Made by a program: the position numbers and the translations under genes | Source: Hypomesus transpacificus | Lineage: Eukaryota | DNA: 64,000 nucleotides | Direction of reading: 5' to 3' | Assembly: GCF_021917145.1 (NCBI RefSeq) | Contig: NC_061076.1 | Span: forward strand, 13,096,768 to 13,160,767 | The notes under the pieces: generated by a model | Databases searched by the model: none | What the model was told of the DNA's origin: nothing | The model's input: only the letters and a program-made list of their open reading frames with translations | In this document: piece by piece, positions 10,046 through 62,105 of the stretch | How positions within the stretch are numbered: position 1 is the first letter of the stretch | Layout of the letters: each line of letters starts with the position of its first letter

Positions 10046-10599
10046 TAAAAATGAACGAAAGCGATCAGTTTGAGTTTTACTATCCATATCTAACTTCGGT
10101 TTTGGTGTATCAACCTCGTTAAAGCTCGGTCAATATGTTAAAGCCCAGTTTGATAATTACCGGCATGAACTCACTCTCAGTAAGTAGTTAGCCTTCACTA
10201 GTCATCCGAGATCAAAAATGCTAGCAACGCCACCAGTGTAATTTTACAACAATTTTACAGCACGAGACAGAAAATTTGAACAACAAATCAAATTGGTTGC
10301 CTGCAGAATGGGTCATCAAATATATAATTAATTAGCATCGGCATGAATGTGGTCCGCTTAGACAAAATACACTCAAATTCTGTCAGACCAACGCAAATGT
10401 GCTTCAAGGTCAAACGAAAATAGCAAATAAAATAAAAGTTAAACTACAATTCTAAATATCGCAAGAATACGATTTATATGATGGCTTATATACAATACAA
10501 CAACCAGACATTTAATTGACACATGTAGTACAATAATATAATATAAAAGTATACCGCGGTTGAAACGGTATAGCCAAATCTCTCCCATGTAGACACATT

Positions 10600-26244: not shown

Positions 26245-26383
26245 GGGTCACCGGTTAGGGAGTCGGGCTATTAATCAGAAGGTTGTTGGTTCGATTCCTG
26301 GCCATGCAAAATGAGGTTGTGTCTGTACTTACTGTAAGTCGCTCTGGATAAGAACGTCTGCTAAATGACTAAATGTAAATAAA
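26245..26383 (+). mobile_element. HpaI-like tRNA-derived SINE with an L2-type tail.
   Basis: Head 'gggtcaccggttagggagtcgggctattaatcagaaggttgttggttcgattcctggcc'. Tail 'tgtaagtcgctctggataagaacgtctgctaaatgactaaatgtaaataaa' is the reverse complement of the L2 3' tail at 45040-45075. Confidence 0.7.
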
Positions 26384-35699: not shown

Positions 35700-37830
35700 T
35701 TTAGTCTTAATAGTCAGCCCACCCTTCCCAGAAAGCCTTGGATGTGTGTGCGTGTTCCCAAGCTCGTGCCTGGATGTGTCAGTGAGAATTTGTGCAATAA
35801 GTACAATAAGACAGATGGACTTTATGATAGTGTTAGTGGCAGTTGGGAGTTCTGGGCCTTGTTGATGAGGCCAGCTGCAGACGGAAAGAAACGATTCTTA
35901 TGGCGTGTGGTTTTGGTCCTAATGGACCCTAGCCTCTAGGGCTGTAGTCAACCAAAGAAATGCTTAGTCGACCAAAGTCTTGTCCTGCCCAACGATCAGT
36001 CGACTAAAAAAAGAAAAAAAAAAGAGACGCGATGTTTTGCATTTTGATTGACCATTTATTATTTATTTGTCCGTTACCACTGACAGCCGCTTCTCTGGTG
36101 GAATGTTGTAAGTGTCCGCGACTTCAGTGAGTCGCGCAGCGACATTTTCTCCCGTGTGCGCTTCATCCATCTGCTCTGTTTCTAACACAACGCTATTCAT
36201 TTTCCAGTCTGCATCGATAAAATGGGCCGTAACTGTCATGTATGCCTCCATTCTAAGCGAAGACCACAAATCAGTTGTGAGGCTTACAGCCTCGGAGGAT
36301 TGGAGTAGCTGGTTTACATTTACTTTAAGTCCATCAAACCGCGAACGTAGCGCACGCATGACAGTATCCCGTGCTGGCACAGTATATCTTGGCTCGACGA
36401 TTTTAAACATGTTCTTAATGCCCTCTCCTTCCACTGTGTTGACTGGCCTCATATCTTGGGCGATGTAATGCACAATCCCCTTAGTGATGTCCTCCTTTGT
36501 CTTTGCCGACAGAGGATGGACCAACTCCAGTTGCGTCTGGGTGCTTCCTGACGCCTGTGGCATGGCCTGGGGATGCGCCTAGTACATAACCAAAACAATA
36601 TATAAACTTTAAGACATTAGACATAGCAAGCTCAGCTGTATGACACGTGTATAAATCGCTTACCGCTTTTAGGTGATAGGCCATATTGGTCGTTGAGCTA
36701 TGGTAAATTAGCTTTAGGCCGCATAGCTTGCACTCCACAGTCTTGTCGTCTTTTTTTGTAAAATGCAGCCAGACAAAAGATTTAGATTTCTTGGACATTT
36801 TGTCGACTAAAGACAAAACACGTAGCGTTCTAACTGAATGAATACAGCAAAACTACCCATATTCCTTAGGCTACTGAGCGCGAAGCAGCGGTGCAGCCAG
36901 CCACGTGCGGTTCCCGAGTGTTCTACGTGGTGCGCTAAACTGTGGCGCTGTTACGAAATAGCCTAAATTAAAGCATTTAAAGTTGGGGATAAAACATAAG
37001 CTAATTATATTTTGAATACAGTAATATATAACTGCTTATAAAGGAATAAATATCAAAGAGTAAATCAATGAAAATGTCTTTATTGGTAAAAAAAAAAAAA
37101 ATAATCCAACTGGTCGACCAATGAGAATGTCAGTCGACCAAGACGAAATCGACCGATTAGTCGACTAAACGACTAAAGTTGACAGCCCTACTAGCCTCCT
37201 GTCGGAGGGGAGGGGCTGGAACAGTGTGTGTCCAGGGTGGGAGGAGTCAACCACAATCTTACTTGCTCGCCTCAGGGACTTTGAGGTGTGTAGGTCCTCG
37301 AGAGATGGCAGATTGCAGCCGATCACCTTCTCAGTATTGCGGATGACACACTGCAGTCTGCTCTTGTCCTTGGCAGTGGCAGCAGTGTACCAGAGGGTGA
37401 TGGAGGAGGTGAGGATGGACTCAATGAAGGCTGTATAGAAGTGCACCATCATTGTCTTTGGCAGGTTGAATTTCTTCAGCTGCCGCAGGAGCATCCTCTG
37501 TTCTTGGTGAAGGAGCTGATGTTCAGTTCCCACTTGAGGTCCTGAGAGAGGATAGTGCCCAGGAAGCGGAATAACTCCACAGTGTAGACTGGGAAGTCGC
37601 ACAGGGTGATGGGGCTGAGTGGGGCTTGGTTTTTCTTGAAGTCCACAACCATCTCCACTGTCTTGAGAGCATTTAGCTCCTGGCTGCACCAGGTTGTGAG
37701 CTTCCCATCTGTTGTCAGACTCATCCGCGCCAGATATGAGCACAATGAGGTTGGTGTCATCCATGTGGTATGTTGTGCTCTGTCTCGTGTTGGATGACTC
37801 AGGGAATGCGAGGCAGAACATGAACTGGAT
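35700..37830 (-). mobile_element. L2/CR1-clade LINE copy D (ORF2 C-terminal region plus 3' part), interrupted by the hAT insertion at 35937-37190.
   Basis: Minus ORF 37165-37821 '...FNLPKTMMVHFYTAFIESILTSSITLWYTAATAKDKSRLQ...' and ORF 37476-37760 'ELNALKTVEMVVDFKKNQAPLSPITLCDFPVYTVELFRFLGTILSQDLKWELNISS'. Sequence on both sides of the hAT is contiguous when compared with copy B. Confidence 0.7.
35937..37190 (-). mobile_element. Internally deleted hAT transposon nested in LINE copy D, with a perfect 8-bp TSD CTAGCCTC.
   Basis: Terminal inverted repeats tagggctgtagtcaac... and ...gttgacagcccta. TSD ctagcctc at 35929-35936 and 37191-37198. Minus ORFs carry a BED finger ('FVWLHFTKKDDKTVECKLCGLKLIYHSSTTNMAYHL') and the hAT N-terminal catalytic region ('VSLTTDLWSS...EAYMTVTAHFID...VLETEQMDEAHTGENVAARLTEV'). 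Confidence 0.8.
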
Positions 37831-38764: not shown

Positions 38765-41700
38765 GCACCAGGGGTCTCATTTATAAAGCTTGCGTACGCA
38801 CAAAACGGGGCTGAAAATGTGCGTACGCCACTTTCCACGCAAAGGGTGTGATTTATAAAAAACTAACTTGACGGGAGGATGTGCGGCCCTCCACGCAAAC
38901 TCTGACCCTCCCGTAGGCCTATGCACATTTTGGAAACAGTTGGAATTGGCGACGCAGATGACCCTACTGTAGTCAGACTGCCAGGGATTTTGCTAGGAAT
39001 TCTGTGCCCCCTAAAAGAATATTAGTGTGGGCCCCCGCCCCCCGACTTTTCATCGCCAAAGATCAATTTTACACCACTTTTTCTTAGACTGTATTATGTT
39101 TTCTTGATTTTTTCTGTTTCTCTATGTTCTTGACAGTGCCTGATGCAATGCACACAATTTGTTAATTTTCTTCAATCAATCACTCAGACTCACTGGGTAT
39201 TATTATGTAAAACTCAAGCACCTGGTGCAACACACCCGAGCACTGCTTTTGTACACATTTATGTTTATGTTAAATGGCACAACTGATGAAGAACTAACAT
39301 ACCTAGTCTTGGCATTAACATAAAAAATCTAAATTGGCTTATAAATGCCATAACTCTAGAGAAACAGCTTCACGTTATTATTGTATGAGGATATCAAGAT
39401 GTAAGATTAGCCCCAGCTTAACATTAAGAAGACTAATGTCAATAGGCTACAATAGCAGTTTAGTTTTAGTTAACACAAGAATGGAAAATTGTGTCCTACA
39501 GTACTGCTACTGGACTTTTTTGACAGCGTATTATAATGTTTGGCGAATTATAACCTTACTAATCTTTTCTGTGGATGATATTTAGTGGATAATTTTGTAA
39601 TGTCAGCCTTGTCAGTGGATTATTTTACACTGCTGACCACACGTAACGTATGGAGGATTATAGGGGCCAAAACTAAATAAATAAATACTTGGATAAATAA
39701 ATAATTATATAACACAAAGCTTAAATAAATGACACAAAATATAAATGTTACATGTATTTGTGTGTATATATATATATGTTTACGTTTTCATGTGTTTACA
39801 TTTATTCATTTATACTTACATTTATTCATTTATACTTACATTTATTTATTTATTTATTTATACTTACATTTATTTATTTATACTTACATTTATGTATTTA
39901 TACTTACATTTATCCACGGTGAAACTTCCTGCAGCAAAATAAATCTGTCGTCCCCCCGTCACCAAGTCAGGGGGCGGGTCAAAGCCTCTGATTGGTGGTT
40001 CAACTTGAATCGACTGCTTTTGACTATTCCAAGGTGGCAGCACATGTTACATGTAACATTTATATCTTTGTGTCATTTATTTAAGCTTTGTGTTATATAA
40101 TTATTTATTTATCCAAGTATTAATTTATTTAGTTTTGGCCCCTATAATCCTCCATAGCTAAGCGCTAGCTCCTGACATTAGTCATTCCAACATGGTGACG
40201 TTGGACGCGGCGAGCTATGCTATGTCTCGTGAACTACAGGACGCCTGTGCAGCTATCTTAACACTCTCACCTTTCTTCTGAAAAGAAATCGCTGATATTC
40301 TGGGCTCCTGATGTGCTCTTGGCCTCTCTTTTCTTCCTCTCCTCTCTTTTTTGGCGTCCCGATTTACATTTCTGTTTTGGCATTGTCAGTTCTCTATTGA
40401 TAACTGGCTGGCTGCTGCTGCTGTTTGTGAGCAATAACGTTACGCGCACATTTTCTAAAGAGGAGCAAACAATGGACCCAATTTTTTTTTTTAAAGGGTG
40501 TTAATGCTCGGAAAATAGAAACATTAATTTTTTCCCAATTTTGCTTGATTTTGTGGCTTTGTTTTAACTCTGATGCATTAGTGCATGGCCTACATAATAG
40601 GCTACTGGGGTTTTTGTGGGGCCCCCCTGGGCTGTGGGCCCCTAGAATTATCATCACTTTTCACCCCTAAACTATGGCCCTGCAGACTGCAGAAATTGAA
40701 TGTGGGAAAAACAGTACTCGTAATATTTATATATTTTGTTTTCCTCACACACGTTTTTTTCATTCAATTTCATGATTATCATGAAGATTACTAGCCTGGC
40801 TCTGCCCTCCTACGTACTTCCGCTCAATTTGGATTTTGCTTCTGTACTAGGTCTGGGAGTTTGACTTTGCAGTCTGTTTTCAGAAACACATTTTTTGTAG
40901 ATCCAATCAGCGAACAGAGGGAGTGGCTGAGAACGATGACGTTAATGTCGTGCACTAGTTTGAGTAGTTCAGTAATGGCGGCGGAGAAAGATGCGAGCGA
41001 AGCTATTCTGCGGTTGTGGCAACGCTGCCGAATATCCATAAGTTAAAGCCGGAGCAAGAACATTCCTTGCTGAGTTTTGTTGGTGGCCCTCCTCCCCACA
41101 GGGTTTGGGAAAAGTTTGATTTTCCAGCTACGGCAGCTAGCTCCGTTACAGTAGTGGTGAAGGAGTTGGCTAAGGCGAACGCTTGTGATGTAACTTGGTT
41201 ATGGCAGATCAGAGTGGTTCTGGGCAGATCCAATAGTTTTAAACTTCAACAGAGGACCCGCCTTCAAGGAAGTTAACACTTGTCAATGGAGTGATCCCAG
41301 ACCCTCTGTACAAATGAAATGTACGAAGGTCTGGTTAGGACCAGGCTAGAAGATTACATCCAGCAGTGTTATTTGCTGAGTGATACTTGTTCCATAAACA
41401 CCTTGTACAATCCAACTCAAATTTTAAATAAAAATTCTGCGCTTCCTTACAATCAGATCCAGTCCACTACAGGAGTGCAGGAGGGAGAGATTCCCCAACT
41501 GCATGGAATACAGAATAACATCACATATCCTACCTTTAGATAACTGCAGAACAAAGTGTATAACTAAATATATTTCTTTAATACTGTGCAAATATCCTCA
41601 TATGGCAAAAACTGGAAATACAGTCGTTAAGCTCCCGTGCAATCCCTACACTCTACGTCCTCGTTAACATTCCAGACTTTAATAGACTACTGTTCATAAC

Positions 41701-45039: not shown

Positions 45040-45770
45040 CAATTTACATTTACATGTATTCATTCAGCAGACGCTTTTATCCAAAGCAACTTCCAAGAGA
45101 GAGCTTTACAAAGTGCATAGGTCTCTGATAATAACAACAAGATAGCCCTAAAGCATTGCGGGTAGCCAAAACAAGCACACATTGTGAACAACCAAAAAAT
45201 AAGTGTCAATGGGAAAAACCATAAGAGCATGTAGTTAAGCAAGTTACAATTTAAACAACATGAATCTGTAAGTGCAAGTGTACCCGTAGAAAAACAAGCA
45301 ACAGTAAAATAAAAATATAAGATTAACTAAAATAGAATACAACAGTTTAAATCAGCTACCACTAACCAACAAGAGCAACAAGTCTATAAGCAAGAGTCAT
45401 TGTGATCCTTGAGGAAACTAGCATCGGGTTCAGCAAACCATTCCTAAGTACTCCCTGAACAAGTGCGTCTTGAGCCTTCTCTTGAAGGAGGAGAGACAGT
45501 CTGTGTCTCTGATGGAGGTGGGGAGTTGATTCCACCACTGGTGGGCCAGGCAGGAGAAGAGCTTGTGTTGAGACCGGGCAGTCTTGAGCGGTGGGACCAC
45601 CATGCTCCTCCTCCTGCCGCCTCCTATAGTCCACAATCATCTCCTTGGTCTTGCTGATGTTGAGAGAGAGGTCCTGACACCATGATGTCAGGGTGTCAAC
45701 TTCCTCTCTGTAGGCTGACTCGTCACTGTCAGAGATGAGGCCCACGTTGGTTGTGTCGTCAGCAAACTTT
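45040..45770 (-). mobile_element. 5'-truncated L2-clade LINE: RT C-terminal segment, ORF2 C-terminal region, 3'UTR and (TGTAA)-type tail.
   Basis: Minus ORF 'GLISDSDESAYREEVDTLTSWCQDLSLNISKTKEMIVDYRR' (RT) and 'PLKTARSQHKLFSCLAHQWWNQLPTSIRDTDCLSSFKRRLKTHLFREYL' (the LWN.LP..IR...S...FK..LKT.LF signature). The minus strand ends '...gcgtctgctgaatgaatacatgtaaatgtaaa'. Confidence 0.7.
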
Positions 45771-46539
45771 TCGGAGCTCTCGTCGGCGCAGCCATCTCTA
45801 GGCGCACCCTGTATCTGTGTTTATTGCCAATAAACTAAATCATAGCACATTCTACCTATGCTCTTTAGCAAGCTAAACTAGTTTACATGCCTACAGTCTA
45901 GGTTTTTTCGCATCTAGCTGGTCTTGCATTCCTTGCAAATCAGCGTTAATAAAAAGCAGATGAGCTAGAGTCTACATAACATTGACTCAACGGGCATGGC
46001 TGATGTTTGTCTATACCGTAGCTTTAGCGTAGAAGATCCCTGTGCAGTTCGACCCTCAATTACACATTTGCTCAAACCATTTCACCAAGGACAATGTAAA
46101 GCTGGATTTGCTTTGAAGCTGTTGCTGAGAAGAGGGGCGTTCCAATCTTAGTTATGTTCATCACAACCGCAAAGCCGTAGGACGATTTTGTCGGTAAAGT
46201 TATTAGCAATGCTAACGTATCCTGTATCTAGCACCTGCCTTTCTCCAGTTCTTTCAAATAGATCATCTAGACCAGCGGTTCTCAAAGTGGAGGCCCTTTC
46301 GGGGTCGCAAAAGGTTTTCTGGGGGTCAATAAAAATGTTCGGAGGCGAGATGATTCCTGCCGGACAATTCAAATATGGGAAATACAATTCCCATGTTTCC
46401 TGCCTTGATATCTTTGCCGTCCAATCACCGATTTTATTTCTGAAAACTGCCAGATACTCATGACAACTTAGCTCAAAGCATATATCATTGGTTAAGGGGT
46501 TACTGGGAGGGGGAAATAAATGTATCGTCAGCAACGGCA

Positions 46540-47420
46540 GCCATTGTTTTCCAAGGCGGAGCCAGAGCGGATACCATGGGAGATTGCCTACAGTAGATTT
46601 ACAGCTTCGAAATCGGAGACGATATTATGAGTAAAGACAAATTTCTTAATGTGTTGTCAATATTGTCAATTAAAAGTCTAAACTTTTTACTTACAAAGAA
46701 TTTGTTTGTGGGAGTGACGCGAGTTTTTTAGGAAATAATTACGTGTCCGACAGGACAGGCAGCTAAGACGGTAGTAGTAGCACTGTTAAGCCTCGATTTG
46801 AGCAGATTTCTAGAAAACTTGGAAAAACAACACTTGCCAGATTATGTACACTGTAAGGTAAATGCACATGCCTTGTTTGGCCAATTCGGTCGATTGTGGA
46901 AGAAACTCAAACGTTTTTTAGTTATCGAGAGGAGTATCCAGCCATAGCGCTAGCTACTTTTGGGGGAGGAGAATTCCGGTTTCCCCTATGTCTCCACTAG
47001 TCACTAGAATGGTCATAACTTTTAATCAAAATATGATATTTCTAATCTGTCTTCTGTTCTTCATTTCCCACATATTTGCGGATATTCCACCTACTCAAAG
47101 TATTTCTCCATCTTGTAAATGAAGTGGTTAAAAATGAATTAAGTTGTCTGATGAGGTATGGTGGATGGAGAAGTTTATGTAAAAAACGGCTGCCTGAAAT
47201 CACCTTGATAAAATATTATTTTCCTTAAGTAATCATATATTTATTCATATCATAAAAATCCCTTAGTTCTCCTCTTCAATATGGTACAAACAGTTAAGGT
47301 GTATGATTTAATATGAAAATTCATAAAATATTAATATGAATCATATTTCAAAAGCATATGGAATGTTGGCTTAGGCAGTAAAGGGTTTTAAATAGGTTAG
47401 GCAGTTTAGTGCCATCTAAT
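46540..47420 (-). repeat. Unclassified ~0.87-kb interspersed repeat, copy C, nested in the hAT-Buster 5' region.
   Basis: Reverse complement of 4318-5200 at high identity over the whole length. Confidence 0.75.
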
Positions 47421-47585
47421 GGCCATTTTAGAATAATTATCTTTTTTGCGTTGGTCATTTGCAGCAGCTACAGCTGGCTTCGTTTCCACGGCAACAGGAG
47501 CCGTTAGGCTGTGGTATACCGTGACTGAGTTAGGGTCGGAGGACAGGTCATTTCGGGGGTTGTTAGCATACACATTTAACAGAAA

Positions 47586-49511
47586 ATGGACAGATGGCTG
47601 CTAAGAACGTCAGAGAAAAGCTCGGAAGAGCAATCCACCAGTGCCTCTGAACCATCCACGAGTGCCTCTGAACCATCCACCAGTGCCTCTGTTCCGCGAT
47701 CTTCAGGTGGGACAGGCATTTATGATGCAGGGGACCCCGGTGAGAAAAAAAAGCATCGCAAATTTCTAAAGGAATACATTCAATTCGGATTCACGTGCCA
47801 TGTTAAAAATCCGGTGGAGCATCCACAATGTGTGCTTTGCGGCGACGTTCTGGCACACGAAAGTTTAAAACCTGTTAAAATGAAAAGACATTTAGAAACT
47901 CGACACCCAGATCATGCCCAGAAACCCATTCAGTTCTTTCAAAGAAAAGAAACGGCACTGCTTGGGCAAAAGTCTGCAATGCATGGGCAAGCAACTGTGC
48001 CCACCAAAGCCCTCGCAGCATCCTATGAGGTGGCCCACCTGGTAGCAAAATCTCTGAAGCCACACACAATTGCTGAGAGTCTACTCCTCCCTGCAGCAAT
48101 TGCAATGGTGAGTGCAATGCACGGCGAAAAGGTTGCGAATGCATTGAAGACCATCCCGCTCTCCAATAACACCATGTCCAGGCGCATTTACGACATCGCC
48201 CACGATATGAAATGTCAAATGCTTGAGCGAGTACAAAACAGCAGATTTTCTTTGCAGCTGGACGAGTCCACAGACATGGTTGGTGTCGCACACCTGATGG
48301 TGTGTATTCGTTACAGTCACGAGGGAAAACTCCACGAGGATATGCTGTTCTGTGCTCCATTAGAAGGACGGTGTACTGGTGATGACATTTTCAATTGTCT
48401 AAAAAGTTGGATGGAGGACGCAGGATTGTGTTGGGAAAAATGCATAAGCATATGCACTGATGGAGCCGGAGCTATGATGGGGAAAAATAAAGGACTTAAA
48501 GCAAAGGTTTTCACTGTTGCACCACACATCAGGTTTACCCACTGCCTTATCCACAGGGAAGCCTTGGCAGCGAAATCACTGGAACCAGAGCTGGAGGATG
48601 TTCTCCAAACAGCAGTCAAAATAGTCAATCACATCAAGTCACGCCCCCTAAACACCAGACTCTTTGCCATTCTATGCCAAGAGATGGGAGCTACTCACGA
48701 ATCACTTCTGTTCCATTCAGAGGTTAGGTGGCTTTTGAGAGGAAAGGTTCTTACACGCCTATTCGAGCTGAGAGATGAGGTGCACACCTTTCTCTACAAC
48801 ACACACTCCACTTTTGCGCATCATCTTGCCGACTCAACATGGATCGCATGTCTTGCATACCTGTCGGGTATATTTGACAAATTAAACTCACTAAATATAT
48901 CACTGCAAGGCCCCAACAGTAACATCCTATCCCTGTCAGACAAAGTCAATGCTTTCATGAAAAAGCTGGAGCGTTGGGCAGCCCGTATCGAGAATGGCGA
49001 TTTCGAAATGTTCTCAGACCTACATGAATTTTTGGAAGAGAATGCCATTAATGTCACTTCACTTAAATGCTCAATAATCAGTCACCTCCACCAGCTCCTG
49101 CAAAAATTCCACCAATACTTTCCCGCAGAGAATGTGGAAAAATATGACTGGATACGTCAGCCATTCAGCAGCTGCGCTTCAAGCGAAGTAGACTCTGAGC
49201 TCGAAGATGCGTTGCTTGAGCTCTCCAGTGATCGGACGTTGCAGATGTCGTTTGCATCCAAGACACTGGATGAGTTTTGGCTTTCAGTTGCACAGGAGTA
49301 CCCCGCACTGTCTGCGGCCGCTATGGCCATTCTTACACACTTTGGGTCGACATATCTGTGCGAAAAGACATTCTCGTCCCTAGTGTACTTAAAAAACAAG
49401 TACAGATGTCGGCTGAGCAGCGTGGAGGAAAATCTCCGAGTCGCCGTGTGCGGCATCAGCCCAAGAATGAATGTCTTATGTTCCAAAAAGCAGGCCCACC
49501 CTTCACATTAA
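47586..49511 (+). CDS. hAT-Buster / ZBED5-like transposase, 641 aa, apparently intact.
   Basis: Uninterrupted ORF with an N-terminal zinc-finger region ('KKKHRKFLKEYIQFGFTC...QCVLCGDVLAHESLKPVKMKRHLETRHP'), a DDE/RNaseH-like core ('SLQLDESTDMVGVAHLMVCIRY', 'CISICTDGAGAMMGKNKG', 'HCLIHREALAAK') and a hAT C-terminal dimerisation domain ('LSSDRTLQMSFASKTLDEFWLSV...YLCEKTFSSLVYLKNKYRCRL'). Confidence 0.8.
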   Translation: MDRWLLRTSEKSSEEQSTSASEPSTSASEPSTSASVPRSSGGTGIYDAGDPGEKKKHRKFLKEYIQFGFTCHVKNPVEHPQCVLCGDVLAHESLKPVKMKRHLETRHPDHAQKPIQFFQRKETALLGQKSAMHGQATVPTKALAASYEVAHLVAKSLKPHTIAESLLLPAAIAMVSAMHGEKVANALKTIPLSNNTMSRRIYDIAHDMKCQMLERVQNSRFSLQLDESTDMVGVAHLMVCIRYSHEGKLHEDMLFCAPLEGRCTGDDIFNCLKSWMEDAGLCWEKCISICTDGAGAMMGKNKGLKAKVFTVAPHIRFTHCLIHREALAAKSLEPELEDVLQTAVKIVNHIKSRPLNTRLFAILCQEMGATHESLLFHSEVRWLLRGKVLTRLFELRDEVHTFLYNTHSTFAHHLADSTWIACLAYLSGIFDKLNSLNISLQGPNSNILSLSDKVNAFMKKLERWAARIENGDFEMFSDLHEFLEENAINVTSLKCSIISHLHQLLQKFHQYFPAENVEKYDWIRQPFSSCASSEVDSELEDALLELSSDRTLQMSFASKTLDEFWLSVAQEYPALSAAAMAILTHFGSTYLCEKTFSSLVYLKNKYRCRLSSVEENLRVAVCGISPRMNVLCSKKQAHPSH

Positions 49512-49895
49512 TGTAAAAAAAAAAATACAAACGACAACATGCTGTGATAAGACTGGAAGTCCCAAGCTATAAATACCCTCAATACATTAAGATCGGATGC
49601 ATGCTCTTGGCTTTAATTTTATTTTTATAAATGTTTTGAGGTTTGTCGCTTATGCGTCTTGTTCAGGCCTGTCGTGTGTAAGTTCTTGTTTTAAATAAAC
49701 TAGTCACCTTGTAATTTTTCCTTTGATACAATTGTTTCTTGTTTGATTATTTTCCTTTCAGTTTGTACAATTGTGGGAACATGCAATAAGCCGGTTTTAA
49801 AATGAGAAAAAAAAAATAGGGGGTCGCCAGACGTCACCACAGAATTTTGGGGGGTCGCCAGGGGAAAAGTTTGAGAACCGCTGATCTAGACAGAC

Positions 49896-49930
49896 GTTAG
49901 CAATAGTCTAGAGTCTAGACTATTGCTAAC
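49896..49930. repeat. 35-bp perfect palindrome gttagcaatagtctaga-g-tctagactattgctaac, immediately 3' of the Buster TSD.
   Basis: Read directly. It is part of the longer palindromic insertion target (45925-46272 / 49884-50085). Confidence 0.85.
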
Positions 49931-51224
49931 GCCACACATAGACTTTTCAGCAACTGCGGCTTAGCTGTTGGCTTAGCTGACTGTCCTCGGTGAAATGGTT
50001 CGAGCAAATGTGTTATTGAGGTTCGAACTGCACAGATATTCTCATATAGACAAACATGACACAGCCCATTGAGTGTTTGGGTCCTTAAGAAGACTCTGAA
50101 AAGTGTCAGCATTCCCTGTACAGTCTGGAACACTGCATTTATTCCCATAGTCCATTTTCAATATGCTAGAAAAACCTTCTTTGTAATTCTGTGGAAGTAC
50201 ATAGAGCAGCGCGCAGCAAATTTTGGGGCGTGACAAAGGTACAGACCAGAGCCAAAAACGTGGAGCCCCGTTGAGACGCCACAGCAGGGAGATTTTTCAG
50301 GAACTAATGTTTCACAGCTACATTTTTTAATTGGGAGATTTACATAGGAAAGAGGTGTCAATGGACTTTGAGGTTCACTGTATGTCCATTTTACCCACTG
50401 AACTGTCGTTATTCAACTGTGACAAGGTTCTGCAATCAATCGCCCCTTTAACCTTTAATAAACCCTTCTAACCCTTCCTCAACACTCTTCTAATACCTTT
50501 CCTTAAACAAAAATAAAATTACACTTATGAGCTCCCACAAAATACACAGCTTAAAAAAATTACCCAAACAACTGACAAAATGCTAATTGACTCCATGTCA
50601 ATGGATATTGAAGTGCACGTGGTCTTAAAAATCAGAGATACCAGGGCTCCAGACTGCGACCAAATGGTCGCATTTTGCAAGACTTTTTTTTTTTGAGACA
50701 TTTTTTATAAGTACTTGTGGATGTGCAACCTACAAATTTGGAATGCATTTGATGTACACAACGTCAGCACACATTAGCAACGACGCATAGATACGACGTT
50801 CTAGTAAGACAGCGATATCAGCAGCCCTCAGCATTAGTACTGTAGCTAAAAGTCTAGGAAAGTTGAGGCTACTTTTCGCTAGGTACCTATAAACCTAGTT
50901 AAAAGTCTTGGAAAATGTAGGCTATTTTTCGCTACGTGCCTACGAACATGTCTTTATCTGCCAGACAAGTGGGTTCCCCTTCATTCTTTGGGTGAGCTGT
51001 CTCACGAGCCTTTCTTACCCGGCGTCATGGAGCCGAGCAGCTAAATACTTATTTAGCACTACCGTTGTAAGCTACTGGATCTCAGCCTGTGTTTGCGCTG
51101 TTGCTCAGCAGGCGATTCTAGGATCAGACTATTAGGGGTACAGCCCCCAATGACAATGTGACATGAATACAGTACAGTGCCTTGCAAAAGTGCAAAACCC
51201 CCTTGCTATTAGATCCCTAATTTC

Positions 51225-51640
51225 ACTGGATAACAATTTACATGTATTCATTTAGCAGACGCTTTTATCCAAAGTGACTTCCAAGAGAGAGCTTTACAAA
51301 GTGCATAGGTTACTGATAATAACAACAAGATAGCCGCAAGCATTGGGGGTAGCCAAAACAAGAAGTACACATTGTGAACAACCAAAAAATAAGTGCCAAA
51401 GGGAAGAACCATAAGAGCATGTAGTTAAGCAAGTTACAATTTAAACAACATGAATCACTAAGTGCAAGTGTACCTGTAGAAAAGCAAGCAACAGAAAAAA
51501 AAAAAAAAAAAAAAGGTTAAACTAAATAGAATATTTTGCAGCCAATACAACAGTTTAAATCAGTTACCACTAACCAACAAGAGCAACAAGAGTCATTGTG
51601 ATCCTTGAGAAAACTAGCATGGGTTCAGCAAACCATTCCT
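51225..51640 (-). mobile_element. Second 5'-truncated L2 3'-end copy, preceded by a Tc1 terminal-repeat fragment (51172-51215).
   Basis: About 90% identical to 45040-45460 ('tacatgtattcatttagcagacgcttttatccaaagtgacttccaagagagagctttacaaagtgcatagg...'). The fragment 'tacagtgccttgcaaaagtgcaaaaccccc' sits just upstream. Confidence 0.7.
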
Positions 51641-54660: not shown

Positions 54661-56713
54661 TCACTCGCGTCACTCACACACACACAGATTAGGCTCGGGA
54701 CGCGTCTGCAGAGCGCACCTGTGAGGGTAAGTATGGCGAACACCAGTCACTCTAGCACTTCAGTGGTTGCACATACACACAGCAGTCTCGTACGTTCATC
54801 TCGTCTGGTGTGTGGTTTGTGTTGGGGAATGCTGTTGCTGCTCTCTGCCCGGATGTCGAGACGGTGTCTCAGGGAGACGGTGTCTCCGTTGGTGCGGCAG
54901 GGAGCCGCTGCGAGCACAACCATACGCCAAACCAAATATTACAATGATGTATTGTATCATGTGGAATAAAGTATCTGTAACAAAACTACCAGTCCTCCTG
55001 CCTGAAACAAGCGAAGCAGGTTCAGGCAGGGGGACGCGAGACCTAGCGCGACTAGCAATCGTCATCACGCGTCAGGCACACCCTTCTAATAGGGCGGGGT
55101 ATATAGCAGGGAATCCCAGTCCCGCAGGGCTAGTGCGACACAAACACTCTTGGTCTCCTGCGGCCTCGCCTCCCCGGCCTCCTCCCTTTTGTCTGGTTTT
55201 CTTTTTCTTCTTTCTCAGGGGGAATGCTGTTGCTGCTCTCTGCCCGGATGTCGAGACGGTGTCTCAGGGAGATGGTGTCTCCGTTGGGTGCGGCAGGGAG
55301 CCGCTGCGAGCACAACCATACGCCAAACCAAATATTACAATGATGTATTGTATCATGTGGAATAAAGTATCTGTAACGAAACTACCAGTCCTCCTGCCTG
55401 AACCAATAACTCATATCAAACCCATAATCTAACTTGTTCATAAGATCTGTTTACCTTACTTGAATAAATTCATTGTAAAGATATTTTGACGTGCGTGTTC
55501 ACTGATGCTACGATTGGCTCTACACTTAGAACGAATTCATTCCTAAAGATGAGACTGATTATTACATGTTAAATATAGGATTCCCTAATGTCCTAAACCA
55601 ATATTAGGGTGGTGCCCCGAACTTTATGATAAATTAAGTATTTCTATTTTAACACGACGAGACCCCGCTACACTAGGTACCGTTGTACTCCCGGAACAAG
55701 TGCGTCTTGAGCCTTCTCTTGAAGGTGGAGAGACTGTCTCTGATGGAGGTGGGGAGTTGATTCCACCACTGGGGAATCAATTAATTCATGTATGTATTAT
55801 TATGCAAAATATTGAATGAATGAAATAACTAAGGATGTCCCATTCTTCAGGAACTATCAGCATCAAATGAAAATAAACAATAATTTTTATTTTATTTATT
55901 ATTATAATTTTTTGGCTGCTGAGATGAAATTTGGGTGTGCTTGAGCACCCCTAAAAAGGGTCTAAAATCGCCACTGGTAGGAGGACTGATTGATAAGTGC
56001 ATCATAAATTTAAGGCATTTAGCTAAGACTTGCATGTACAGTACGTAATGTTACATTAGATGTGTATTTAAACTCAAGCTTGTGTGGTGCGTGGCTGTAT
56101 ATCCAGGGCTCTAGAGTGCGACCAAAATTTGTACGGGTGCAACTAAAATTGTTCCTAGGTCGACCGGTGCACCTAACCTCCTCGCATCCGCTGCCTCTCA
56201 AGGAACGAAGCGTTTGTTTCTTCTTTGACGGAACTCACACTCATGGTTGGATCATACTGTGATCTAAACCATAGACATAGTAAAGAGTAAACGCCGCATC
56301 GACCGCTACTGCTTACTGGCGCTGACGAGCCGTGGGGCCGCCATCTTGGAAAGGTCCACCGCTCCACTCAGTGTAATCTGTTTGGCTGGGGCAATGAGCT
56401 GTCAGCGCATTTAATTAATCATACCGAACTGATTTTCATACAGTTTGCTTTGCTGCAAAGGTCATACATGTAGCTATGATACAGGACATGGTTATTATTT
56501 TCACAAAATACAACCAATAGTATGGTTATCTTACTTGTAAAAAGTAATGCCCTGAGCCCTGTTTTCGATTATCCGTCGATTTGAGCAGGAATATGCTGCA
56601 CAGTGCTGGCACCTTGTTTATTCTGATGCTAAGCAACTATTAACTTGACCTTTCCAAGATGGCGGCCGCATTTCTTGCGCCCAGCAGCCAAATATTATGT
56701 CTATGGTCTAAAC

Positions 56714-57995
56714 GAGTGTTTCCCAAACTTTTTTTCCTGGGGACCCATATTTTAAAAGTCACAAGCCTTCGCGACTCAAGCCAATAGACATTATTCGTAA
56801 ATCACAATATAAATTGATTTGACCATTAATGAGGATATTTTATTGCTATTTTATAAATGATATTTTATTGTTATTTCAGAACTTGTAGGCCTTCTGCCAT
56901 TGTAAATAATCTATGTCAGTTCAGAGTGATCACATCTCTTTGAACAATTAAACCAGAAATATTTAAAGAAGGTATTAACAATAAGTGCCTATTTGGACAT
57001 TAAATATAGGCTATTAAAAAACATTTCCATGTCTTCTTCTTTTCAACATAAGATTACAAATGATACAAACATGTTGTACCAATTCGACATTAGCCTACTA
57101 ATGAGATAGGTGGGCCTGTCTGCGTTTTTGTAGTGTGTTCCAGTCCGGGGTGCATGAGGAGAGCGCTACACGCATATCAGGCGCAGCATTCAGTCTGTTT
57201 CTGTGTCTTGTCTTCATTTTTGTGAGCACAGAAAATCCCAATTCACACATGTATGTGGTAGTGAAAGGAATAAGCATAGACATGCTGGCCCTACTAAGGA
57301 CAGGATATTCTGACGATATGCTTATCCAGAATGACGATAAGGTCACAGATCCATGGCGTCTTTGCAGAGTGCGATCGCAGCTGAGCTGCAACAACTCGGT
57401 TTCTTCTGCAGGACTAAGAGTCAACTCAAGCAAAGCCTCAGGACTCTCAAACTCGAAGGGATTTTGGATACACCTTTTGTCATGCAGAATGGCATACCTC
57501 TCTGTTGGAAAATAGCGTTCAAAGTTCTCAATGAGCGCAACGAGATGAGTTTGAATGAGCGCAGATAGGTGTTTCAGTTGTGTGGCCGCAACATCGTGTT
57601 CTTCTACGTGCTTCAACACAGTAGGAAACATGTAGTGACTTGGGTCTGGCCTTCTGAGTCGTGCAAGTCACAGCTTCAAGGACTTTTGGAAAGCCTGAAA
57701 AAAATTCCAATTTAGGAAAACATTGTCGTTGCGTCCCTGTAATTTCGAGTTCAGGTCGTTAAGGGATGATTAAATATCGGCCAAATAAGACAAATTGAGA
57801 AGCCAATCATCATTGAATAATTCGGCAAGAGTGGACTTTTTCTGGATGAGGAACGCTTGCCTTTGGACAACCAGCGTACTTCAGTGTGAAACAGTAAGTG
57901 TGTGTGTTCTGCTCCCATGTCAGTGCACAGTTGATCAAACAGCCGGTTGTTAAGTGCACTGGCCTTAATGAAGTTTACAACGCGAATGACTTCGC
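56714..57995 (-). mobile_element. Decayed, 5'-truncated copy of the same hAT-Buster family.
   Basis: Minus ORF 57098-57631 'LSCDRTLQRRHGSVTLSSFWISISSEYPVLSRASMSMLIPFTTTYMCELGFSVLTKMKTRHRNRL...KRRQAHLSH' parallels the C-terminus of the 47586-49511 ORF. ORF 57751-58188 contains 'SEVIRVVNFIKASALNNRLFDQLCTDMGAEHTHLLFHTEVRWLSKGK'. A terminal-repeat-like sequence 'gagtgtttcccaaactttttttcctggggaccc' lies at 56714. Confidence 0.65.
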
Positions 57996-59229
57996 TCAGT
58001 GTTTTGTCGAAGGCGGGGGGGGTATGCCCTTGCATGTGTAACGGGTGTGCAACAGTTCTCGTGTTAATATATAGAAGTGCACATCCGTTAACGGCGTAAT
58101 CGTCTGCGTTGTGTTCTGGGGGGGTGTGAATGTTGGATGAATGGAAGGATGGGAGACTGGACCACAAAGGAGGCTGGCTTTCTCTCATTTATTCGCTTCT
58201 GTATGAGCCAAAGAAACCAACGTGTCAATAGTATAAACGGTCGTAGTCGGGACCAACATTCCCTCCTCCGCTCAGACAGTAAAAAGCCTTCTGACGACGT
58301 ATAAAATAATATGAAAATAAATAGAATAACATACTAGATGCACTTCACTGCATATACACAAACATAACCAGCATCGATAATATAAAGAACATAAAACATT
58401 CATACCTGTATGAGCCAAAGAAACCAACGTGTCAATAGTATAAACGGTCGTAGTCGGGACCAACATTCCCTCCTAGCAAACAAATAAAGAGGAAACACTG
58501 TAATACCCGGACGCACATGTACACAACAAAAACTCTCAAAAAGTGCATTTACTAAGTGCTAGCTAACAAAACAGCGCTGTAACATGTTCACACACTTAAT
58601 TCACAACACACTTAGTTACACATTAAACATTTTCATTGTACACAAAACGACCTATATGCTAAAATATGACGAGAAACACAACAACATACCTCCGCTCAGA
58701 CAGTAAAAAGCCTTCTGAGCTTTGGCGCCACACACACGTCACAAAACACGGACTTCTCTTAAAGCTACAGTACAGGTACAAAAACACATCAACAAAGGAA
58801 CAGGTTACCAAATGTACCTAAACATATACTGGTACATTTAAATCAGCATTGGTGACATTTCAACACAACTAAAAAAACGCTGTTTCACCCTGGTTACATA
58901 CACCCCTCCTGAAATTCACCAACATCCTGATTTAAGGATGTCTTCACAGGCGTACAAAAAGTCTAGCACTGACACAACCTGGCACAAATGAACAATGGAC
59001 CTTGTCCACATAGTCAACTTGAAAGCTACCTTAACACAAGGTTCAGGAAAGAAAGAGGTTGATCAAATCTCTAGATTCCCCTTAGTTTGATGTGACGCCT
59101 CGTACGTCACACAGCATTTGGCCCAAAATACATAGTCCATAGACATTTGCAGGTTTATAAAACCTCATAGTTGGCCCCTTTTGAAAATGTATCACATAAG
59201 CACTTTCAACACTTAGTCACGCCCAACTT

Positions 59230-60894
59230 TTAAAACAGCTGGGAACGGCCGTCCATAAAAAACTTGGACCTTTCAAACAATGGTTTCTGAACCATAGATT
59301 CTATCAATCTGTTCACTGATTTCACCAATCTTCCAGCACGTGTTCTGACAATGCCATCATCCTCAGCGTGTGCATGAGAGTCAGTGCAACCTGAGGTGTC
59401 AGCATGCTGGGCTGGCCTTGTGTCTCTGTGTGGAGCGACTGAGATGGATGGACAGTCATTGATAACAGCAGCAGGACAGAGTGCTGGACTAGGCTGAGCA
59501 TGCTCTTCTGCAACAGCCAACTCGGACTCAGGTGAGTCGTCAAGTGATGAGATTGAGAGCTCCTCTTCATCTCTGGAATCTGACACGTCCTGGGCATGTT
59601 CACCCTGAGTCAATTCTCCAGACACTGAAGCCATTTCATCATCATCAGAGACGCGATCTTCCTTATCAGACTCCTCTTCAGCCCACGACTGATCAGTTGC
59701 ATCAGCAGACTCGGCTTGGTCCAATCCAGGGAGAGGCAAGAAGTTCACTTCCAGTAAGAGATTCCTGTGCACAACTCTTGTGTGTCCCACGGCATCCTGT
59801 ATTTTGTAGACATGGATACTTGGATTCACTCCAACCACTGTGTACACTCCATCTTCCCATTTGTCGGCTAACTTCCTCTTTCCTCGTCCCCCTTTATTTG
59901 ACACCAACACACGATCTCCCACTGACAGGAAGGTGCCCTTGGCTCGTTTGTTGTATTGTCGGGTCTGGTGCTGCTGCTCAGAGGAAGTATGTTTCTGAGC
60001 GATCTCCATAGCACTTTTCAAGCAAGAAAGCAGGGATTTTGCATATGTGTCGTAGTCAGCAACTTCAGGGTCGTCCAGAACCCGCCTGAACATGACGTCC
60101 ACCGGCAGCCTAGGGACACGCCCAAACATGAGGAAGAATGGAGCGTAACCCGTCGTCTCGTGGACGGTGGCGTTGTATGCGAACGTGAGGGTCTGGACTT
60201 GTTGTGGCCATTGCTGTTTTTCTTTTAGGGGAAGGGCTCGGAGCATGTTGCCCAAGGTGCGGTTGAATCGCTCGGTACCCCCATTGCCCATCGGATGGTA
60301 AGCTGTCGTGTGGGATTTTGCAACACCAGCCAAACGGAGGAGCTCCGCAATCAGGTTGCTCTCGAAATTGGCGCCCTGGTCGGAATGTATCCTCGCCGGG
60401 AAACCATAAACACAGAACACATTATCCCAAAGCTTCCTTGCGACCTGCTTTGCCGTTTGATCGGCACAAGGGAAGGCATGAGCGAGTTTGGTGTAGTGGT
60501 CGGTGACCACCAAAACATCAACGGACCGCTGCTTGCTGTCTTCGGCAGTCCAGAAATCCATGCACACTAACTCCATTGGAGCTGAGCTCTTGATGCTCTC
60601 CAGAGGAGCGCGAGCAGCTGGTTCCGGTGACTTCCCAAACACACATCTCTGACAGCATTTTACATGTGCCCTCACATCCTTTTCCATATCAGGCCAATAG
60701 AAACGCTGTCTTGCAAGCGAAAGAGTACGATCCTGGCCCTGATGACCTGCCAGATCATGGATGCCGGACAGTGCTTTGTCCTTTAGACTCTGAGGCAACA
60801 CATATTGGGATCGTCGCTGCTTGGAAACTGGATCTCTTGAGACCCGATACAGAACTCCATCATGGACTTCCAGCCTTTCCCATTGCTTCAACAA
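59230..60894 (-). CDS. Gypsy pol segment 3: integrase (554-aa ORF) with an acidic, Ser-rich C-terminal tail.
   Basis: HHCC 'HDLAGHQGQDRTLSLARQRFYWPDMEKDVRAHVKCCQRC'. DDE core 'LVCMDFW...VLVVTDHYTKLAHAFP...IHSDQGANFESNLIAELL...YHPMGNGGTERFNRTL'. GPY/F module 'DGVYTVVGVN'. Confidence 0.85.
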   Translation of the reverse strand: MLKQWERLEVHDGVLYRVSRDPVSKQRRSQYVLPQSLKDKALSGIHDLAGHQGQDRTLSLARQRFYWPDMEKDVRAHVKCCQRCVFGKSPEPAARAPLESIKSSAPMELVCMDFWTAEDSKQRSVDVLVVTDHYTKLAHAFPCADQTAKQVARKLWDNVFCVYGFPARIHSDQGANFESNLIAELLRLAGVAKSHTTAYHPMGNGGTERFNRTLGNMLRALPLKEKQQWPQQVQTLTFAYNATVHETTGYAPFFLMFGRVPRLPVDVMFRRVLDDPEVADYDTYAKSLLSCLKSAMEIAQKHTSSEQQHQTRQYNKRAKGTFLSVGDRVLVSNKGGRGKRKLADKWEDGVYTVVGVNPSIHVYKIQDAVGHTRVVHRNLLLEVNFLPLPGLDQAESADATDQSWAEEESDKEDRVSDDDEMASVSGELTQGEHAQDVSDSRDEEELSISSLDDSPESELAVAEEHAQPSPALCPAAVINDCPSISVAPHRDTRPAQHADTSGCTDSHAHAEDDGIVRTRAGRLVKSVNRLIESMVQKPLFERSKFFMDGRSQLF

Positions 60895-60942
60895 TCTGAG
60901 GACCTTCGAGTCAGCACCATGCCTTTCTCGCCTAGACGGTCG

Positions 60943-62031: not shown

Positions 62032-62105
62032 ACCCCCACCGTTGATGATGTGGCCAAGGAACCGGACTTACTTCTGCAGAAGGTGGCACTTTTTAGGAGC
62101 CAGTT

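Follow-up and report, generated by a model that had tools for sequence, protein, structure and literature searches.

Positions 46273-49883 of a 64-kb window of Hypomesus transpacificus DNA (the window being the whole stretch that was analysed) very probably represent one insertion of a DNA transposon of autonomous type that belongs to the Buster family in the hAT superfamily. The element is 3,611 bp long, is the single copy of its kind seen within the window and resides in a TE-rich intergenic region approximately 13 kb downstream of MVP, which encodes the major vault protein. It is a transposon insertion rather than a domesticated gene, and the retention of its protein features and of both its ends suggests a young or still-competent copy, neither a fossil nor a host gene.

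Structure and termini of the element

The two termini, the 14-bp terminal inverted repeats (TIRs), the perfect 8-bp target site duplication (TSD) and the 641-aa open reading frame (ORF) reported by a first-pass annotation of this DNA were all confirmed exactly when the sequence was read directly. The features discussed below are as follows, with related Buster insertions designated by L numbers.

45967-46146, no strand: left arm of a foldback, core 46040-46095
46265-46272, no strand: left TSD ATCTAGAC, read directly, identical to the right copy
46273-46286, plus strand: left TIR CAGCGGTTCTCAAA, perfect 14/14 complement of the right TIR
46273-46544, plus strand: non-coding part of the left end (272 bp), upstream of the foreign segment
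46301-46308, plus strand: subterminal GGGGTCGC motif of the left end, candidate binding repeat
46545-47387, no strand: unclassified interspersed-repeat segment, 843 bp, with copies elsewhere in the window
47388-47585, plus strand: ATG-proximal 5' non-coding region, matching L006 and L002
47586-49511, plus strand: ORF of 641 aa, uninterrupted, assigned by sequence to the Buster-clade hAT transposases
47628-47691, plus strand: three in-frame tandem copies of a 21-nt unit (STSASEP), within the low-complexity region at the N-terminus
47829-47906, plus strand: zinc finger C82/C85/H102/H107, within the ORF
48261-48263, plus strand: catalytic D226, by profile alignment to Hermes
48459-48461, plus strand: catalytic D292, by profile alignment to Hermes
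48543-48554, plus strand: C320..H323 (CxxH), invariant among homologs
48729-48731, plus strand: W382, invariant among homologs
49272-49430, plus strand: hATC dimerisation region, aa 563-615 (PF05699)
49362-49364, plus strand: catalytic E593, by profile alignment to Hermes
49512-49869, plus strand: 3' non-coding region, with GGGGTCGC at 49820-49827 and 49851-49858
49870-49883, minus strand: right TIR, reverse complement of CAGCGGTTCTCAAA
49884-49891, no strand: right TSD ATCTAGAC, read directly
49895-49931, no strand: perfect 37-nt palindrome (18+1+18), separated from the right TSD by 3 nt
49922-50097, no strand: right arm of the foldback, core 49980-50035
about 56713-58026, minus strand: 5'-truncated, frameshifted Buster remnant of another family, 38-42% protein identity

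TIRs of hAT elements are short, about 10-25 bp, and usually begin with CAG or TAG. Exact matches to CAGCGGTTCTCAAA in the 64 kb number two, both being the element's own termini (a search allowing up to 2 mismatches is expected to yield 0.48 chance matches over this length), and the flanking ATCTAGAC copies agree at 8/8 positions, with TA at positions 4-5. The latter fits the Buster consensus nnnTAnnn, as established for TcBuster, in which 96% of 27,985 integrations occurred at TA (PMC3499496). The element displays the features of the hAT superfamily, namely an 8-bp TSD, short TIRs, and a transposase whose RNase-H-like DDE core is split by an insertion domain and followed by a C-terminal hAT dimerisation region. 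The GGGGTCGC motif occurs three times in the 64 kb, every time within the element ends, recurs at the ends of L001 and L003, and may act as a transposase-binding repeat. Homology to relatives extends to other non-coding parts: the last 64 bp of the element match the right ends of L001 and L003 at 75-78% identity, positions 47389-47504 are 85% identical to L006 239-368, and positions 47549-47631 match L002 1734-1814.

The description of the element as intact, which was part of the earlier annotation, holds for its structurally complete ends and its ORF, but overlooked an unrelated 843-bp repeat embedded in the 5' non-coding region, 272 bp from the left end and about 199 bp ahead of the ATG. The nearest copy of this foreign segment in the window lies on the opposite strand at 4335-5205 (85% identity) and another is found at 11852-12571 (68%); neither adjoins hAT ends, and no TSD or TIR of its own was recognised for the segment. 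Without it the element measures 2,768 bp, and the relatives, at 2.7-2.8 kb, lack such a segment and have a TIR-to-ATG distance of only 355-408 bp. The insert may separate the promoter from the ORF. The left end required for transposition of AnBuster is about 240 bp (PMC12637253), and by this comparison the 272 bp retained here could suffice.

Transposase and relatives

Judged from its sequence, the ORF is a Buster-clade hAT transposase. It aligns with AeBuster1 (A9X5H4) at 41% identity over 100% of its length (E 5.5e-151), and similarity scores group it with AeBuster1 and not with Ac/Hermes. The protein search recovered 656 homologs, many of them named ZBED5-like or SCAND3-like and others FAM200A-like or 'SCAN domain-containing protein 3-like', and the domains PF27073 (FAM200-ZBED5_RNase-like) and PF27046 (FAM200-GTF2IRD2-like) occur among the homologs; the exact 641-aa protein was not on record in the database search. 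The hATC domain PF05699 was recognised on aa 563-615 with 25.1 bits, above the cutoff of 21.4. Hermes transposase was not detected by a single-sequence search with the ORF, but was the sole match of a PDB search with a profile of 31 homologs (E 4.7e-5), in which D226, D292 and E593 align with the Hermes motifs DLWTD, TDRG and SERTFS. The Pfam hit, the homologs and the profile bear out the zinc finger, the DDE core and the hATC region that had been read from the letters, as well as the assignment to Buster, and the catalytic triad and the core tryptophan, W382, are in place. Another hAT fragment of the window, of Ac type (36063-36563), was not hit by tblastn with the ORF at E 1e-2.

All invariant columns are kept in the ORF, including every catalytic and zinc-binding residue, and among columns conserved at 90% or more only 4/141 are changed, compared with 12/145 by the same count in AeBuster1, which is active. 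Two of these changes, Y60F and L212M, are private; S369A is common to L005 and L006, and S384L, which replaces a nearly invariant serine two residues past W382, is common to L005 only. Copy number of the 21-nt tandem repeat varies among close relatives, L002 being 42 nt and L006 21 nt shorter.

The closest sequences found reach 94.5% nucleotide identity and are themselves frameshifted, as is every one of the nearest relatives L002, L005 and L006. On the element's own branch dN/dS is about 0.34 (26 synonymous and 31 non-synonymous changes), and the private substitutions are distributed over the codon positions as 17/16/24, not far from uniform, so that part of the 3% private divergence may be neutral decay. 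Relatives, including those in Eleginops maclovinus and Xyrauchen texanus, sit at unrelated loci and have TIRs of the type CAG(T/C)G(G/A)TTCT(T/C)AAA; the TSD is perfect in six of the seven, that of L003 being degraded (5/8), and TA occupies TSD positions 4-5 in all 8 Buster insertions examined. L001 (Eleginops maclovinus CM070452.1, 7330-10153, 2,824 bp) and L003 (a JGI metagenome contig, 265-2949, 2,685 bp, carrying a frameshift) resemble the present element in amino acid sequence (72-76% identity), in their GGGGTCGC subterminal repeats and in 8-bp TSDs with a central TA. They differ from it in their TIR, CAGTGATTCTTAAAC (3/14 positions), in their 355-408 bp 5' regions with no embedded repeat, and in their loci: L001 adjoins MOV10, its flanks having nothing in common with the window. 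Its TSD, CTCTAATA, is perfect as here, unlike that of L003.

A second Buster sequence downstream had been taken for a decayed copy of the same family (56714-57995). This remnant retains no more than the C-terminal half (aa ~317-626) together with a 3' end similar to ...GTTTGGGAAACACTCG, shows 38-42% protein identity to the ORF and likewise to all 120 retrieved homologs, and has no blastn match to the element. On these comparisons it belongs to a different Buster family and is not an older copy of this element, and a long-standing activity of one family at this place is therefore not supported.

Flanking foldback and target site

The flanks of the insertion carry long inverted arms able to fold back, as in MITE/foldback elements. 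Their core (46040-46095 versus 49980-50035) is identical at 51/56 nt (91%), and a weaker, gapped extension (about 45967-46146 versus about 49922-50097) brings the arms to approximately 180 nt. The palindrome of about 0.5 kb described earlier is thus reproduced, in a smaller and patchier form than the proposed 45925-46272 and 49884-50085, and the 126 bp abutting the insertion (46147-46272) have no partner on the right flank. The perfect palindrome beside the right TSD, previously given as 35 bp at 49896-49930, is 37 nt long and centred on GTCTAGA-G-TCTAGAC. No second copy of the foldback was found within the window, no match in viral_contigs, and no TSD was recognised at its ends, 45967 and 50097. 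The foldback is a local structure older than the insertion and is probably an unrelated repeat.

It had been proposed that the element landed at the palindrome axis, possibly reflecting a structural target preference, and the idea that palindromes prone to form cruciforms or hairpins are preferred by Buster transposase, DNA structure having directed the element to this foldback, has a number of observations in its favour. The flank inverted-repeat score is reached by 0.4% of control positions in the window, only two local inverted repeats of such strength exist in 60 kb, and the reconstructed empty site folds, as single-stranded DNA, into one long hairpin of -120.3 kcal/mol against -56.3 +/- 4.3 kcal/mol for its shuffles (z = -14.75); in addition, L001 and L008 are flanked by (GT)n and (CA)n tracts in inverted arrangement (scores reached by 2.6% and 7% of controls, respectively), and a rough hand-made Fisher combination over the six non-discovery sites gives p ~0.05. 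However, no inverted repeat is seen in the flanks of five of the seven other Buster insertions (L009-L012 score at the 28-46% level of controls; L003 scores 8.5), the two positive cases consist of nothing but microsatellites, which are ubiquitous in fish, and none has a comparable long palindrome. The insertion point, moreover, falls within the apical loop, at a distance of about 48 bp from the foldback axis and 25 bp from that of the small perfect palindrome, and the target sequence is explanation enough, with its TA centre, T at -2 and three TCTAGA motifs clustered within 30 bp of the empty site. The case was, besides, picked out post hoc, and nesting is common in a TE-dense region such as this. 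Targeting by structure is on balance improbable, and the position inside hairpin-forming DNA looks like coincidence.

Status of the copy and relation to known Busters

Recruitment of the ORF as a hAT-derived host gene (ZBED5/FAM200/SCAND3-like), maintained by selection for a role in the cell and having ceased to be a transposon, would account for an open reading frame under purifying selection (dN/dS 0.12-0.26 versus relatives) and for the gene-like names of many homologs, and co-option had been raised in the first-pass annotation. Such names are, however, automatic annotations of TE copies, and domesticated hAT genes have lost their TIRs and TSD. Here the perfect TIRs and TSD, the subterminal repeats and the catalytic triad are all retained. 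Relatives with 72-76% amino acid identity occupy unrelated fish loci with TIRs and TSDs of their own, and the frameshifts in the close relatives are the pattern of a TE family and not of an orthologous gene; no single orthologous locus emerged among the relatives compared, a comparison confined to genomes other than those of close species. Domestication is accordingly very hard to credit. The domesticated Buster/Charlie-derived vertebrate genes ZBED5, FAM200, SCAND3 and GTF2IRD2 belong to the same protein fold families, but lack TIRs and TSDs and lie at conserved syntenic loci.

A more serious alternative, if still a somewhat doubtful one, is that of a structurally complete but dead copy, an older insertion that is no longer mobile or making transposase and whose ORF is still open merely because too little time has elapsed. 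Candidate causes would be the 843-bp segment that separates the left end from the ATG, itself differing by 15% from the nearest of its copies in the window, host silencing, or S384L beside the core tryptophan, which with Y60F and L212M alters conserved positions. The excess of non-synonymous over synonymous private changes, their near-even spread over codon positions and the frameshifted state of the nearest relatives point in the same direction. On the other hand, 137/141 conserved positions are kept, the active AeBuster1 deviates more, and both TIRs and TSD are perfect. S384L is shared with L005 and is thus older than this insertion, the left end is untouched over its first 272 bp, more than AnBuster requires, and a 1.9-kb ORF is unlikely, by our rough estimate, to remain open past ~1% neutral divergence. 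It is quite possible, from what one window reveals, that the copy can still supply active transposase and/or be mobilised.

The steps of transposition are well established for hAT/Buster elements, as is hAT excision through flanking hairpins. In the present case a transposase dimer would bind the CAG... termini and the subterminal GGGGTCGC repeats, and excision would leave hairpins on the flanking donor DNA; the 3'-OH ends of the element would be joined to the target with an 8-bp stagger centred on TA, the repair of which would create the ATCTAGAC duplication. The element would have landed in the foldback loop, where the sequence offers a good target (T at -2, a TA centre, a TCTAGA cluster), and it has acquired the piece of unrelated interspersed repeat in its 5' region. 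Excision via flanking hairpins is presumably common to this element and Hermes (Musca domestica; PDB 2BW3, 4D1Q), whose D, D and E motifs and hATC region align by profile, although Hermes is an Ac-family element with target consensus nTnnnnAn, detectable by profile only. TcBuster footprints agree in that they point to hairpins and to end-joining (PMC3499496).

AeBuster1, from Aedes aegypti, and TcBuster, from Tribolium castaneum, are the active hAT transposons on which the Buster family was founded. They share with this element the invariant CCHH finger, the DESTD, TDGA and CEKTFS motifs, the CxxH and the W, as well as short CAG... TIRs and an 8-bp TSD with central TA (PMC3499496), AeBuster1 transposase being homologous over its full length. 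The present element differs in its teleost host, its TIR CAGCGGTTCTCAAA and its extra foreign repeat, with about 59% protein divergence from AeBuster1, and is a candidate for activity only. Within the same host class, LlBuster (Lota lota) and LcBuster (Larimichthys crocea) are intact young Busters, each genome holding 7-22 intact, near-identical copies, and LlBT has proved active in human cells (PMC12637253), an experimental demonstration that sets it apart from this element, known here from the sequence of one window. Compared by described architecture, they match: a single ORF, 14-16 bp TIRs, an 8-bp TSD and BED and DDE domains, intact or active fish Busters being 2.5-3.0 kb long with 597-677 aa (PMC12637253). 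The combination of features seen here had been called rare for a vertebrate hAT, but intact young Busters are documented in ray-finned fish, where 308 intact elements have been catalogued (PMC12637253). In conclusion, this element is a further Buster of known type, one of a kind of which intact copies are already catalogued in hundreds.

Anatomy and family of the element

Direct reading of 45800-50200 places the element at 46273-49883, exact to the base as the first-pass annotation had it, with perfect terminal inverted repeats (TIRs), a target site duplication (TSD) and a transposase ORF.

46265-46272, left TSD ATCTAGAC, read directly
46273-46286, left TIR CAGCGGTTCTCAAA, directly inside the TSD
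47586-49511, + strand, transposase ORF of 641 aa, a single ORF
49870-49883, right TIR, exact reverse complement of CAGCGGTTCTCAAA, directly inside the TSD
49884-49891, right TSD ATCTAGAC, read directly

The 14-mer CAGCGGTTCTCAAA has two exact matches in the 64 kb, both of them the TIRs, against a chance expectation of 0.48 even with up to 2 mismatches. A repeat search returned an apparent 21-nt inverted repeat at the element ends, which extends past the 14-bp TIR because TCTAGA, a part of the TSD, is a palindrome of its own. The window contains three copies of the octamer GGGGTCGC (46301, 49820 and 49851), each of them subterminal in the element, and related elements of other species carry it in their ends as well; this confinement and its presence in relatives make it a good candidate for a subterminal repeat to which the transposase would bind. 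Rejoining the flanks around a single TSD gives the reconstructed empty allele ...TTCAAATAGATC ATCTAGAC AGACGTTAGCAATAG...

It was found in a Pfam search that the ORF carries the hAT C-terminal dimerisation domain above the curated cutoff, and a search of a large protein collection retrieved 656 relatives, many of them automatically named ZBED5-like, SCAND3-like or FAM200A-like. The top named relatives are teleost (Eleginops maclovinus, 76%; Gadus morhua, 70%), and the AeBuster1 transposase of Aedes aegypti (A9X5H4), known from experiment to be active, aligns at 41% identity with 100% query coverage (E 5.5e-151); an exact-sequence look-up of the 641-aa ORF found no identical protein on record. 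Conserved residues were read from an alignment of the ORF with 30 full-length homologs, in which the zinc-finger ligands C82, C85, H102 and H107, all present in the ORF, are invariant. The DESTD motif is present, with E227 and D230 invariant and D226 nearly so, as are the TDGA motif (D292), the CxxH motif (C320, H323), W382 and the CEKTFS motif (E593). Since a phmmer search of the PDB with the single ORF sequence gave only noise, a profile was needed, and the alignment profile had the Hermes transposase as its sole match in the PDB (E 4.7e-5). The catalytic D, D and E of Hermes, in I-D-LWTD, V-T-D-RG and S-E-RTFS, fall opposite D226, D292 and E593 respectively. The D-D-E triad and the tryptophan of the DDE core, which the first-pass annotation had left to be looked for, are thus both in place.

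At alignment columns conserved at 90% or more, the ORF differs at 4 of 141 (Y60F, L212M, S369A and S384L) and AeBuster1, by the same count, at 12 of 145. S369A is common to L005 and L006, two frameshifted close relatives, and S384L to L005, so that both predate the insertion; Y60F and L212M are conservative changes private to the window copy. Every defining feature of hAT and Buster elements that could be tested was found, and the architecture, chemistry and target site of the element are textbook Buster. Near the N-terminus of the transposase, 47628-47691 holds three in-frame copies of a 21-nt tandem repeat (STSASEP), whose copy number varies among close relatives. Full-length crustacean relatives (Penaeus japonicus, 58%) equal or exceed many fish relatives in identity (Xyrauchen texanus, 55%); horizontal transfers have already been reported for Buster elements, and the patchy host pattern of these relatives has a distribution typical of such transfer.

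Relatives, selection and intactness

It had been suggested that the copy was possibly co-opted, although neither of the two features that define a domesticated gene is found here, and the element is a transposon copy rather than a host gene, its relatives with flanking DNA behaving as mobile elements. For example, the Eleginops copy (L001, CM070452.1, 7330-10153, 2,824 bp) has the TIR CAGTGATTCTTAAAC and the perfect TSD CTCTAATA and adjoins MOV10, with flanks that have no sequence in common with the window. A metagenome-derived copy on a JGI contig (L003, 265-2949, 2,685 bp) has the same ends as the Eleginops copy, and distant Buster elements in Xyrauchen texanus and four other assemblies show the perfect TSDs ATGTAGAG, GCGTAGAG, CCCTAATC, GTGTAAAG and TTCTAGTG. 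TA occupies TSD positions 4-5 in 8/8 Buster insertions, the window element included; the Buster TSD consensus is nnnTAnnn, and 96% of 27,985 TcBuster integrations lie at TA (PMC3499496). TIR/TSD detection was negative at L013-L017 and L020-L023, which were left out of the target-site test.

A second Buster sequence lies downstream.

57101-58026, - strand, Buster remnant (tblastn), aa ~317-626, with a frameshift near 57853

Its N-terminal half is missing, and at ~56713 there is a 3' end similar to ...GTTTGGGAAACACTCG. It had been read as a decayed copy of the same family, indicating long local activity, a view contradicted by a protein identity of only 38-42% to the window ORF and to each of 120 retrieved homologs and by the finding of no nucleotide similarity between remnant and element. 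The remnant belongs to a different Buster family and is silent on how long the element's own family has been active.

Regarding selection, dN/dS of the ORF is 0.12 against the Eleginops copy, 0.16 against the metagenome copy and 0.26 against the frameshifted relative L002. The closest sequences, L005 and L006 (ENA assemblies ERZ507056 and ERZ506946), have 94.5% ORF identity to the window copy and are both frameshifted; they are 99.3% identical to each other and have in common a frameshifting 2-nt insertion relative to the window ORF, so that they represent either one locus sampled twice or a defective element that was still propagated in trans. The terminal branch of the element carries 57 private substitutions (26 synonymous, 31 non-synonymous; omega ~0.34), an omega which indicates that most of the branch divergence accrued under selection, with a short neutral phase on the element's own branch possible. 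The 1.9-kb ORF has no stop or indel and the 44 bp of TIR and TSD are all perfect, which by rough estimate fits only a young insertion or an active lineage. CpG observed/expected, taken as an age proxy, is uninformative (0.69 in the element vs 0.55 in the window).

The element measures 3,611 bp, compared to 2.7-2.8 kb in its relatives, the excess being an 843-bp segment (46545-47387) that is 85% identical to 4335-5205 (opposite strand) and 68% identical to 11852-12571. hAT ends accompany neither of these other copies, which makes the segment part of an unclassified interspersed repeat unrelated to the element; it lies 272 bp in from the left end, and the ATG follows 199 bp after it. A non-autonomous derivative of the element was also considered for this segment and rejected, as the other copies are without hAT ends or hAT flanking sequence. 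No TSD, TIRs or Helitron-type ends were recognised around it, and an ordinary nested insertion and filler DNA taken up in gap repair are both possible origins. The internal 5' regions of the element, L002 and L006 are mutually non-homologous, and what the three have in common is confined to the outermost left end and the stretch next to the ATG. The left end is undisturbed over its first 272 bp; AnBuster requires 240 bp of its left end (PMC12637253), a length that the retained 272 bp would exceed if the analogy with AnBuster holds. The right boundary of the repeat (47387-47389) falls within 2 bp of the start of L006 homology (L006 238-239), upstream of which L006 has unrelated sequence, and TTAGGCAGT stands on both sides of this right junction (47370 and 47397); the junction may be a recombination or gap-repair hot spot.

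Target site and foldback

The flanks form an inverted repeat with a core at 46040-46095 and 49980-50035 (51/56 nt identical), gapped extensions reaching ~45967-46146 and ~49922-50097, and the arm sequence CTGTGCAGTTCGA[AC]CCTCAAT[AT]ACACATTTGCTC...; a search of viral_contigs with the arm gave no matches. As single-stranded DNA, the 527-nt empty site folds into one long hairpin (-120.3 kcal/mol vs -56.3 +/- 4.3 for shuffles, z = -14.75), with the 126 bp abutting the left junction unpaired. The first-pass annotation had placed the insertion at the centre of a palindrome; the flank inverted repeat is real, but the insertion point is in the apical loop, off the foldback axis by ~48 bp, and a separate palindrome, perfect over 37 nt (49895-49931), begins 3 nt away from it.

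Only 2 local inverted repeats of comparable strength exist in the window, and the flank inverted-repeat score at the insertion is reached by 0.4% of control positions, so the coincidence of element and foldback is real, yet it was noticed post hoc. A structural target preference, raised at first as one possibility, is not borne out by seven other Buster insertions: in the same test the flanks of the metagenome copy gave nothing, and the scores of the more distant insertions L009-L012 were reached by 28-46% of the controls for each. The Eleginops copy (2.6%) and L008, another distant insertion (7%), are each flanked by a pair of inverted microsatellites, (GT)n and (CA)n; such tracts occur everywhere in fish, and these pairs could be chance in microsatellite-rich genomes. 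The (GT)n left and (CA)n right tracts lie at 6919-7030 and 10214-10338 in the Eleginops sequence and at 2790-2813 and 4910-4940 in L008, where they abut the TSD directly. A rough Fisher combination by hand, leaving out the discovery case, gives p ~0.05, a hint of structure preference at most. On the other hand, the site is a good Buster target, with a central TA, a T at -2 and 3 TCTAGA motifs within 30 bp of the empty site. Sequence-level target quality is the simpler explanation of site choice, and insertion in the foldback loop is probably a coincidence.

Outside the TSD, position -2 is T in 8/8 Buster insertions and +2 is A in 7/8 (window 46263-46264 / 49892-49893; L001 7320-7321 / 10162-10163; L003; L008; L009-L012). 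Positions -1 and +1 are mostly G or C (-1, G in 5 and C in 3; +1, C in 5/8). These eight sites suggest an extended palindromic Buster target, T-S-nnnTAnnn-S-A.

The 37-nt palindrome, 3 nt from the insertion, has the centre GTCTAGA-G-TCTAGAC, which equals the palindromic 8-mer GTCTAGAC written twice minus one junction base. GTCTAGAC fits nnnTAnnn and is 7/8 identical to the present TSD; its -2 and +2 bases, T and A, agree with those of the other insertions examined. From its sequence, the centre could, with low probability, be read as having the shape of a hAT excision footprint on GTCTAGAC. An earlier insertion would then have occupied the precise axis of symmetry of a 30-bp perfect palindrome, excised and reinserted ~22 bp away; that the element is a live Buster copy after such a local hop is quite unlikely. 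Were it true, the pre-insertion foldback centre would be a single GTCTAGAC rather than GTCTAGAGTCTAGAC, and the hop would hint at a preference among Buster transposases for targets that are extended palindromes or prone to form cruciforms. Loosely defined footprint-like shapes number 19 in the window against 5.5 in Markov simulations, too many to carry weight; the scan was anchored on an intact left copy and so did not register GTCTAGA-G-TCTAGAC. A palindrome alone can generate the footprint pattern.

Genomic setting and place among Buster elements

Nine exons of the major vault protein gene (MVP) were mapped at 527-33230 (+) using a human MVP sequence, with large, TE-filled introns, and the element lies ~13 kb downstream of the last one. 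In database searches the exons matched best at 87% and then, in Champsocephalus esox and Caranx melampygus, at 82%, which shows only that the host is a teleost. Dense LINE, Ty3/gypsy, Tc1, Harbinger and Ac-type hAT fragments surround it.

26321-26374, + strand, UnaL2 LINE 3' element (Rfam RF00436, 56.8 bits)
27798-28223, + strand, Tc1-like fragment
34275-34724, - strand, Harbinger-like DDE fragment
36063-36563, - strand, Ac-type hAT fragment (LTTDLWSS...VVTDK)
59230-63806, - strand, Ty3/gypsy-like pol with long open frames (554, 362 and 566 aa)

The second local inverted repeat (39649-39756 and 40048-40156; 109-nt arms, 98% identity, 291-bp spacer) looks like a MITE or small TIR element. Direct repeats of ~400 bp (45048-45445 and 51236-51640, 86%) bracket the locus 0.8 kb upstream and 1.35 kb downstream, with a third partial copy at 4205-4336; their overlap with a LINE reverse-transcriptase-like ORF (45362-45745, -) makes separate LINE fragments more probable than LTRs.

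The combination of intact features had been called rare for a vertebrate hAT. Among ray-finned fish, however, intact Buster elements are no rarity: the catalogued total of intact elements stands at 308, Larimichthys crocea and Lota lota hold 7-22 intact, near-identical copies, and LlBuster transposes in human cells (PMC12637253). The present element, a tidy and possibly still competent Buster copy, adds one more to this known kind and leaves knowledge of hAT elements unchanged. Its open, well-conserved transposase gene and perfect ends make it a candidate, of modest practical value, for the panel of Buster gene-transfer vectors (TcBuster, AnBT and LlBT), and it marks recent DNA-transposon activity in the lineage of its host fish.
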